DNA of 64,000 bases. Origin: Octopus vulgaris (lineage: Eukaryota). A program made the translations under genes and the position numbers. Positions 15,194 to 16,810 of this stretch are shown here, piece by piece; position 1 is the first letter of the stretch, and each line of letters begins with the position of its first letter. The stretch is taken from NCBI GenBank assembly GCA_951406725.2, contig OX597819.1, positions 19,344,001 to 19,408,000 of the forward strand, given 5' to 3'. A model generated the notes under the pieces. That model saw only the letters and a list, made by a program, of their open reading frames with translations. It was not told the DNA's origin and did no database searches.

Positions 15194-15826
15194 GTATTTT
15201 TGTATGGACGTGTGTGTATGTATATATGTGTATAGTATATACTTTTTATGAGTTTGCTATTGCACGTATGCATGTGGATGTGTGGTGTTATATATTTCTT
15301 TGTAATTGTTTTCTTTAGCATAACGGCAAGGGTGCGGGCATTCCTGTTGAAAAAAATTTTTCCCTATTATGCGGTCTTGGGTTCATTCGCCTTGTGTAGC
15401 AAGTTTGGCAAGCGGAACCACCAAACCACCAAAAACCTACGAGAGAATTTTATACATAGAAACTGAAAGAAGATATGTATGTACATTTGCATGATGTATC
15501 TATATATGTATATCTATATATATGATCTCTGTATATGTGTATGCCTCTCTATATCTACCTATCTATATGATTTATCTATCTATACCTTTGTGTTTGTGTT
15601 GTATTTGTCTCAAGCACCGCTTGGCTTCTTGTGATGGTTTGTTTCCAAAGCCGTAACTTAGCAGGACGTCAAAAACAAACGATAGAATAAGAGCTAGACG
15701 TAAAAAAAAAAGTTCTAGGGATCTATTCGTATGACTCCAATCTTAAAGAGGGTGCCCTATCATCTGCATTTCAATGGCTGGAACGAATGAAAGATAAAAT
15801 ATTTTTTTTTAAATGAACTCTATTAT

Positions 15827-16201
15827 AGAATGGTTGTATACTGTCAATCTAACACGAACGTGACAGTAGGGGGGTACACCACCGCTGTATAGCCCTAGGA
15901 AGCATCGACGCCTCCTGATGGCTTTCACACATTTTTCTGTGTCCTTATATACATTTACGAAGGGGAGATAAATACCCCCAGCCGCCCGGGCTGCATCTAG
16001 GGACACGTGTTTCAGGATGATTGTCCTTCGTCGGCCTAGAGTAGCAGTCAAAGCCATCAGGAGGCGTCGATGCTTCCTAGGGCTATACAGCGGTGGTGTA
16101 CCCCACTACTGTCACGTTCGTGTTAGATTGACAGTATACAACCATTCTATCGCCCCACCACCGTACATGTCTCTACGAGAGATTTAGAAATTTAGCATTT
16201 C
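15827..16201 (-). mobile_element. Short insertion with 101-bp inverted repeats, 13-bp TSD and an internal hammerhead ribozyme (Penelope-like pLTR derivative)
   Basis: TSD TGAACTCTATTAT at 15814-15826 and 16202-16214. Arms 15825-15925 and 16050-16150 are reverse complements with one mismatch. Confidence 0.85.
15991..16047 (-). ncRNA. Minimal type I hammerhead ribozyme (U4C core variant)
   Basis: Minus strand reads CTGC tac TCTAGG CCGACGA AGGA caatca TCCT GAAAC ACGT GTC CCTAGA t GCAG. Stem I is TCTAGG/CCTAGA (extended by CTGC/GCAG), stem II is AGGA/TCCT, stem III is short and palindromic, and the cleavage triplet is GUC. Confidence 0.75.
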
Positions 16202-16810
16202 TGAACTCTATTATGTTTTAGTGCGGATGCAATGCTTCGGAATACTTTAATTATTTTATCCCAGAAACTAATTCGGGATTCATTTTTTTCTTCAAAGGAC
16301 CTCTCCACCTATTCTTCTCCCCTGCATACCTGCAGGATCCCAACTCCTGATATACCGCAGAAACACGCTCCGTATTTTCTCTCATCTAAGTTACCTTCAA
16401 CACACCCATTGTGACATCCATCACAAACGATACTATCGAGCCTTTGTCTTTTATCTCTTTTCACTTGCCTCAGTTATTGGACAGCAGCCATTTTTGGGCT
16501 CCCACCTTGAAGGCCGCATTCAAGCAATTCCACACCGGCGCTTATCATTTATTTCTCGTAAATATGGTGTCGACTACTTTTGCTCTACCCTTAATTTACT
16601 GGGATGTAGACAAAGCAACACTGGGTATCGAACCATAGGGCGGTGCATGGGTGAAACTGACTCAAACCGATACACACACATACACACACATACACACACA
16701 ACTATATGTGTATCTCTCTGTCTCTCTCTGTCTCTGTCTGTCGGTTCGGTATGTCGCTTTCTCTCTCTCTCTCGCTGTTTCGCATTATGTATGTATATAC
16801 ATACATATAT

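Follow-up and report, generated by a model that had tools for sequence, protein, structure and literature searches.

Non-LTR retrozymes are tandem repeats of 150–450 nt that carry a type I hammerhead ribozyme and are probably moved by Penelope-like elements (PLEs) (Cervera and de la Pena 2020, PMC7229834). PLE mobilisation of retrozymes was also argued by Li et al. 2026 (10.64898/2026.07.22.740005), and a term search of the accessible portions of these two papers returned no mention of cephalopods. Inverted 5′-truncated copies, a tail at one end and microsatellite targets are regarded as hallmarks of PLE insertion (PMC8557442). The minimal hammerhead of PLEs has a helix II of 7–8 bp, a helix I of 4–5 bp and an unpaired base before stem II, and the palindromic stem III is a requirement for dimeric cleavage (PMC4209133). 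Among hammerhead-bearing tandem repeats, newt satellite 2 is reported to possess an snRNA-type Pol II promoter (Coats et al. 1994, cited in PMC2220036). Within the hammerhead core, U4 is linked to the backbone in the vicinity of N7, and its replacement by C lowers the in vitro activity considerably; a viroid with U4C stays infectious (PMC3088659). The U4C substitution itself is already known (PMC3088659, PMC13481778), and the search descriptor CYGANGA allows Y at position 4 (PMC13481778). On the side of LINEs, those of the Tx1 clade insert repeatedly into multicopy RNA genes and other mobile elements, and their target choice has been ascribed to the sequence specificity of the endonuclease (PMC4494074).

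The insertion described here lies in a 64,000-nt stretch of Octopus vulgaris DNA (the window), whose genome assembly comprises 2.8 Gb in 227 contigs. It occupies positions 15827–16201 (375 nt) and is bordered by a 13-bp target-site duplication (TSD), TGAACTCTATTAT, on the plus strand at 15814–15826 and 16202–16214. The two copies are identical at 13 of 13 positions, in agreement with the 13-bp TSD of the initial annotation, and the first 3 bases of the right one also equal the end of the element's tail, which constitutes a microhomology. The fold-back arms at 15825–15928 (plus strand) and 16047–16150 extend over 104 nt with 2 mismatches (98% identity). The inverted arms of 101 bp reported previously are hence real, but they contain two mismatches over those 101 nt rather than one. 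The minus strand of the left part (15827–16047) holds a sense, 5′-truncated retrozyme unit with the hammerhead, which corresponds to monomer positions 314–362 followed by 1–178. Its 5′ end is located ~15 nt downstream of the predicted start site, leaving it without the promoter-like motif, and it terminates at the short 3′ end of the family. An inverted second unit on the plus strand (16047–16201, monomer 75–230) is more strongly 5′-truncated and lacks the hammerhead. A tail of 53–56 nt (16149–16204, plus strand) is present on one arm only. No open reading frame of 150 aa or longer was found across the insert, and the copy diverges by 1.4% from its own subfamily consensus, in agreement with the earlier view that it was recently mobile. 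What the window contains is thus not the element itself: it is a mobile repeat of 362 nt in truncated, folded-back form. The 375-bp size given for the insertion was correct, but the unit is the tandem monomer.

The type I hammerhead was located on the minus strand at 15991–16047. Its distal stem I pairs 16047–16044 with 15994–15991, the CTGC/GCAG extension already noticed, with a 3-nt bulge, and the proximal stem I pairs 16040–16035 with 16001–15996. The core from C3 to A9 reads CCGACGA (16034–16028) and places C4 at 16033, exactly as the motif had been written out from the minus strand. Stem II (16027–16014) consists of 4 bp and a 6-nt loop, of which CAA..A is conserved in the family, and is followed by GAAA at 16013–16010 and by an 8-nt self-complementary stem III at 16010–16003, whose predicted pairing between two copies amounts to −10.3 kcal/mol. 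By analogy with known hammerheads, the cut is predicted after C17 (16002), between 16002 and 16001, a position that agrees with the motif layout and with the earlier prediction. All three stems can be closed on paper, but stem III is not predicted in the monomer (pair probability 0.0); in the minimum-energy fold of a lone monomer, the core is paired with stem III instead. The Rfam model Hammerhead_1 (RF00163), recommended as a check, does match 15996–16040, but with 16.3 bits (E 0.24), below the gathering score of 34. At gathering level, the Rfam search returned nothing in the window, and the U4 sister locus L158 gave no match either. The window copy alone proves little, because this Rfam match is weak and its folding energy is unremarkable (z −0.8); the hammerhead is more than chance because the family copies keep and covary the stems. 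The initial annotation had pointed to the minimal hammerheads of PLEs and retrozymes; the build is instead canonical, as helix I is 6 bp with a distal extension and helix II is 4 bp.

Searching the genome with the insert produced 136 matches in the 40 candidates that were scored, out of 2,179. A 24-nt motif close to the 3′ end was matched exactly at 1,809 genome positions, inverted pairs being counted twice. The mobile repeat is present in many hundreds of genome copies. The genome-wide copy search recovered a family whose monomer is 362 nt with a GC content of 44%, arranged head-to-tail with a spacing of 360–366 nt. Insertion anatomy was evaluated for 65 insertions chosen only by the 3′ motif. 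The inverted form, which the initial annotation had likened to PLE insertions, is the commonest in the family (38 of 65); 27 insertions exhibited no inversion. A ~55-nt tail on one arm only was found in 35 of the 38 inverted insertions, the arrangement that the window copy also shows. A microsatellite flank was present in 45 of the 65, with (TA)n among the targets, and 13 of the 20 insertions without such a flank showed a TSD of 7–16 nt. Inversion points and lengths differ from copy to copy, the ends are asymmetric, and the 5′ ends are scattered. Upstream of the hammerhead, copies run into another monomer, not into a PLE reading frame. A 5′-truncation hot spot that appeared just upstream of the hammerhead was an artefact of the query, since 0 of 20 units reaching this site stop there when units are chosen only by the 3′ motif.

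The family exhibits the insertion anatomy of PLEs, that is, inversion, a one-end tail and a microsatellite bias. By its monomer size, tandem arrangement, single type I hammerhead per unit, non-coding nature, GC content and TSD, it is a non-LTR retrozyme. Features in common with the described members of this class are a tandem monomer of 150–450 nt, one canonical type I hammerhead per unit, GC below 50%, absence of a reading frame, a TSD longer than 4 bp, and the presence of PLEs in the same genome. It differs from them by a CCGAYGA core across a lineage and by a LINE parasite at the predicted start site, and the full PLE-type inversion with a one-sided tail is documented here. With PLEs themselves, it shares the inverted 5′-truncated copy, the tail at one end, the microsatellite targets and the palindromic stem III (PMC4209133, PMC8557442). 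In contrast to PLEs, it is without an RT/GIY-YIG reading frame, its helix I comprises 6+4 bp and its helix II 4 bp, and the tail measures 53–56 nt compared with 30–40 nt.

The core substitution of the window copy was then found throughout the family. A single hammerhead pattern returned C4 in 584 matches, U4 in 25, and G5A, a control for CpG decay, in 10; CCGAYGA thereby accounts for 584 of the 609 C4 and U4 matches, which represent a younger clade. The 25 U4 matches are spread across subfamilies, and two of the insertions concerned have C4 in the sister unit. Their number is above the CpG control (25 versus 10), partly owing to within-insertion duplicates and a small U4 sub-branch. Such a sub-branch inside the C4 clade (L032/L033 and L037) has U4 in all three units and may be a reversion that amplified. 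A second pattern led to older sister subfamilies that are alike over the whole monomer and have the CUGANGA core, with U4 in 96 of the 100 matches listed (397 in all). Older C4 subfamilies have C4 in 87 of the 100 matches listed (112 in all), and a few intermediates combine C4 with the old stem II. For a midpoint-rooted tree, 84 usable rows were reduced to 65 by keeping no more than 4 with the same hammerhead signature; the 25 loci that had been selected for U4 were left aside. In this tree, 47 rows (46 with C4) and 18 rows (16 with U4) fall on opposite sides of a branch with 100/97 support. Divergence from the consensus was 4.9% and 3.7% for the U4 groups and 3.4%, 2.4% and 2.2% for the C4 groups; U4 is read as ancestral because its groups are more decayed. 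The order of change is U4 and then C4, which is common to the whole younger branch, and U4C is no accident of one copy. C4 was also detected in a contig of a public run (organism E), and therefore the change is probably older than the species of this genome. The viroid variant carries the same substitution, and its drop in activity in vitro was considered compatible with function in vivo (Ambros and Flores 1998, cited in PMC3088659). It is a rare variant there, whereas here it is fixed in a genomic lineage that gave rise to several subfamilies and comprises 584 or more copies with the exact pattern. In the searched literature, fixation of U4C in a lineage was not reported; Lunse 2017 and the supplements of the cited papers may already list C4 hammerheads.

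Conservation of stems and core in other copies, which had been proposed as a check, was evident. For 27 distinct copies, 94.4% of the cells pair, and two-sided changes occur in 9 of 17 pairs; slid controls of the stem alignment gave 24–51% paired, a comparison that yields no p-value because the copies are related. Between the earliest C4 subfamily and its two descendants, 0 changes were counted in the 11 other core columns, which is weak alone as ~2 are expected. Over the same steps, 3 shared changes arose in stems I and II, all of which keep pairing, including a two-sided change from A-U to G-C and one from U.U to A-U. Outside the ribozyme, 23 of 159 and 31 of 161 columns changed (14–19%). 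Six variants of stem III, 6–10 nt long, all self-pair, and this stem is still self-complementary after C4. The family has a canonical type I build, with a helix I of 6 bp, a helix II of 4 bp, a short palindromic helix III and covariation. The earlier description of a non-coding, ribozyme-containing retroelement with a CCGANGA core is consistent with these data.

Since the stem changes that followed C4 kept the pairing, the C4 hammerhead is likely to perform a slowed but real cleavage. We are fairly confident that the element is a 362-nt retrozyme with C4 in its younger branch, that its RNA is likely spread by PLEs, that its ribozyme would act slower and as a dimer, and that the window contains a truncated fold-back copy of it. 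The life cycle we propose would begin with tandem source loci transcribed from a U2-snRNA-type promoter inside the preceding unit. Two hammerheads would swap their palindromic stem III and cut the multimers to unit length, slowed by C4, and the unit-length RNA may circularise. An RT/GIY-YIG protein of a PLE would prime at AT-rich or (TA)n DNA from either of two set places in the monomer (178 or ~233), and reverse copying could go round a circle or along a multimer, either of which may serve as template. A second, inverted copy would create the fold-back with its tail on one arm, and read-through of the cut and start sites would carry the promoter into new copies. In the family, 30 of 34 units reaching the cut site continue past it, as do 20 of 20 units reaching the predicted start site. 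Only 3 of 34 have their 5′ ends within 6 nt of the cut site, with no pile-up, and 17 of 84 terminal units include the promoter-like motif. In 16 pairs compared, the units of a single insertion did not resemble each other clearly more than they resembled units from elsewhere. In Xenopus, 8 of 9 retrozyme dimers gave no cleavage (10.64898/2026.07.22.740005). The window copy, being without the putative promoter and having a single hammerhead, is probably an inert dead end.

The autonomous RT plus GIY-YIG partner suggested by the initial annotation did not emerge among 30 of the 148 GIY-YIG matches in the genome, for which blastn of natural monomers detected no terminal similarity. No RT/GIY-YIG reading frame was present in the monomer or joined upstream of it in the loci examined. 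Intact 781-aa frames with a GIY-YIG match are present in the genome and belong to a young family. PLE families ending in (TA)n were observed at L314, L318, L319 and L333 (3′ of GIY-YIG matches) and at L072:600-3400, and their 3′ ends carry hammerhead-like motifs with U3-A8 cores.

The same element and the same PLE mobilisation could also operate with a C4 ribozyme that is catalytically dead, whereby uncut multimeric transcripts would spread and the fold would be kept for binding of RT or a host protein or for protection of the RNA 5′ end. The damage caused by U4C in vitro agrees with this idea, as do the read-through of this site by 30 of 34 units, the lack of a 5′-end peak at the cut, and the 16 pairs of units, whose likeness does not point to a circular template. 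The odd cores UUGACGA and UUGAHAA of other families in this genome could mean relaxed constraint. However, the other 11 core columns were kept after C4, and so was a self-complementary stem III of changing length, which is needed for dimeric cleavage (PMC4209133), and the U4C viroid stays infectious (PMC3088659). We hence consider a dead ribozyme unlikely and retain slowed cleavage as the preferred reading.

Two further explanations concern the nature of the unit. It might be only the pLTR of an autonomous PLE, the window holding a 5′-truncated copy of that PLE, as the ends, inversion, tail and (TA)n targets are of PLE type and Xenopus retrozymes resemble pLTRs (10.64898/2026.07.22.740005). 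This is very improbable in our judgement, given that copies upstream of the hammerhead continue into a monomer and not a PLE reading frame, that the long inserts examined beside monomers are LINE or ORF1 units, that the flanks of 30 GIY-YIG loci have no similarity to it, and that the hammerhead build is canonical, not minimal. Even less credence can be given to a DNA transposon of the fold-back or MITE type, in which the 101-bp arms would be terminal inverted repeats and the hammerhead incidental. The long inverted arms and the TSD of the window copy would suit such a transposon, but 27 of 65 insertions have no inversion, the TSD varies between 7 and 16 nt, monomers occur in tandem, and the stems covary. 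The variable inversion points and lengths and the asymmetric ends exclude it, so that an origin from a non-PLE DNA transposon, raised by the initial annotation as a possible objection, was ruled out.

A number of monomers carry an insert, always at the same place ~30 nt upstream of the core. These inserts are either 1.5–2 kb units with a zinc-knuckle ORF1 or full LINEs of 5.4–5.5 kb, which encode APE, RT and zinc-finger domains (ORF2) and an ORF1 with a CCHC knuckle, and which have a TSD and a recurrent target. Full LINEs were seen at L243, L246, L255 and L257–L262 (e.g., G000:C4:131186500-131196499 and G000:C3:20810500-20820499), where ORF2 is 1,134–1,148 aa, many frames are intact, and tandem arrays of ~5.3 kb occur. 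The ORF1-only units of 1.5–2 kb, which we take to resemble HAL1 elements, have a poly(A) signal and form arrays at the same retrozyme site (L056, L064/L072, L019, L043/L070 and L193–L222). A 4-kb hammerhead pair that was first taken as a full-length PLE proved to be an array of monomers and LINE-derived units. Rfam at gathering level gave nothing in 16 LINE-unit loci. In its domains, TSD and recurrent target, the LINE has the features of the L1/Tx1 type, and its homologues are mostly unnamed. It has APE-RT, a zinc-knuckle ORF1 and TSDs in common with Tx1-clade LINEs, such as Keno in U2 snRNA, Tx1L in Tx1D, and Tx1-Mar, as well as recurring insertion into multicopy RNA genes and mobile elements of other kinds (PMC4494074).

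Among 46 distinct 3′ ends of such units, a hammerhead follows at +23 to +38 in 28, another unit in 6, a U2 snRNA gene in 1 and other sequence in 11, four of the latter resembling the retrozyme site by eye; such fractions are not genome-wide, because the loci were picked by likeness to the unit in this family. The hammerheads following these ends come from no fewer than three unrelated monomer families, whose cores read CCGAYGA or CUGAUGA, UUGACGA, and UUGAHAA. At the U2 locus (Rfam 184.9 bits), a duplication of 17 nt covers the RNA's first bases, and LINE ends occur in 3 of 25 U2 upstream contexts. The LINE duplications are 14–21 nt long and lie at the first U2 snRNA bases and at the same motif distance in unrelated retrozymes. 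This motif, ATCAGT, is located at −57 to −61 of the U2 genes. U2 clusters with at least two upstream types sharing ATCAGT were observed at G000:C3:20775000-20836000, C23:43306000-43323000 and C7:30258000-33772000. The upstream regions of 13 U2 genes, chosen because they contain the motif, were used to make a promoter matrix, whose scores are weak (1–9 bits). When it was applied to 9 monomers of 3 unrelated families, the best sense match lay at −54 to −60 in all 9; two of these monomers have a slightly better antisense match. A duplicated target was detected in 21 of 36 LINE-unit loci, and for 17 of the 21 the best matrix match lies 53–62 nt upstream, mostly 55–57, while 4 do not fit; the 17 fitting loci represent only about four independent target types. 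The duplicated target sequences are unrelated between families.

The motif and the LINE footprint together make it likely that the monomer holds an snRNA-type promoter, and the predicted start site has the same basis. An snRNA-type Pol II promoter has its proximal element ~60 nt upstream of the start site. Most simply, the LINE would insert at this predicted start site of the monomer. The repeat would then resemble newt satellite 2 in being a hammerhead tandem repeat with an internal, here putative, snRNA-type Pol II promoter (PMC2220036), but it belongs to another animal group, and its promoter was deduced from the common motif and the position of the LINE insertions instead of transcription assays. 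Sequence specificity is held to direct known Tx1 LINEs, whereas the targets here are unrelated and lie at a fixed 55–57 nt from the promoter-like motif. Targeting by position, whatever the target sequence, is possibly a new mode. The fixed distance recalls TRE5 and Ty3, which are tethered to Pol III. In the searched literature, there was no report of a Tx1 LINE with a retrozyme, none on SNAPc-directed insertion as far as titles and the beginnings of abstracts tell, and none of targeting by distance to a promoter of the snRNA type; Repbase and the majority of subscription papers lay outside these searches. With some reserve, we lean toward a broader reading, in which a superfamily of ~360-nt selfish "snRNA-like genes" would combine a U2-type promoter with a variant-core hammerhead, would be spread by PLEs, and would be parasitised by the LINE by position. 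Each family would have its own tolerated core variant (U4C, C3U or U3-A8), and the LINE would probably tether to the promoter complex at a fixed distance, not to a target sequence.

Further hammerhead repeats were observed in the same genome. A second retrozyme family of ~362 nt with a covariant U3-A8 core (UUGAHAA) forms tandems of at least 5 units (L258:7860-9400; also L202, L212, L257, L300 and L305). A third has a C3U core (UUGACGA, with a U3.G8 wobble) and a palindromic stem III (L211, L221, L243, L246, L249, L250 and L253), and its relative at L252 has the canonical core. Within the window, a short microsatellite-flanked repeat at ~16810–17010 on the plus strand carries a minimal hammerhead with the core CUGAUGA at 16879. 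Its copies read CCGACGA at L047 and L107 and CUGACGA at L112, L123, L164 and L187, so that position 4 varies in that family too. Other families of minimal-hammerhead repeats were seen at L120:2671, L046, L173 and L076, the copy at L120 having the core CCGAUGA.

What is new here is a lineage-wide U4C core together with a U2-type promoter, the latter inferred, in an otherwise known class of retrozymes. The greatest novelty lies in the putatively position-directed LINE, which accompanies the original hammerhead finding. U4 and C4 subfamilies of one element, with intermediates, amount to a dated natural experiment on a supposedly invariant nucleotide. Standing side by side, they pose the question of whether retrozymes need fast cleavage, which concerns the ribozymes of both PLEs and retrozymes. 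They also warn that entire active families are overlooked by CUGANGA descriptors and by the Rfam cut-off. From the LINE footprint, the position of the retrozyme's putative promoter can be read, and a rule suggests itself by which distance to an snRNA promoter determines the target. If this is true, the position-finding LINE would be the snRNA-promoter counterpart of Pol III-tethered retrotransposons, and the core variants would provide a natural series of how a hammerhead core can drift while still working.
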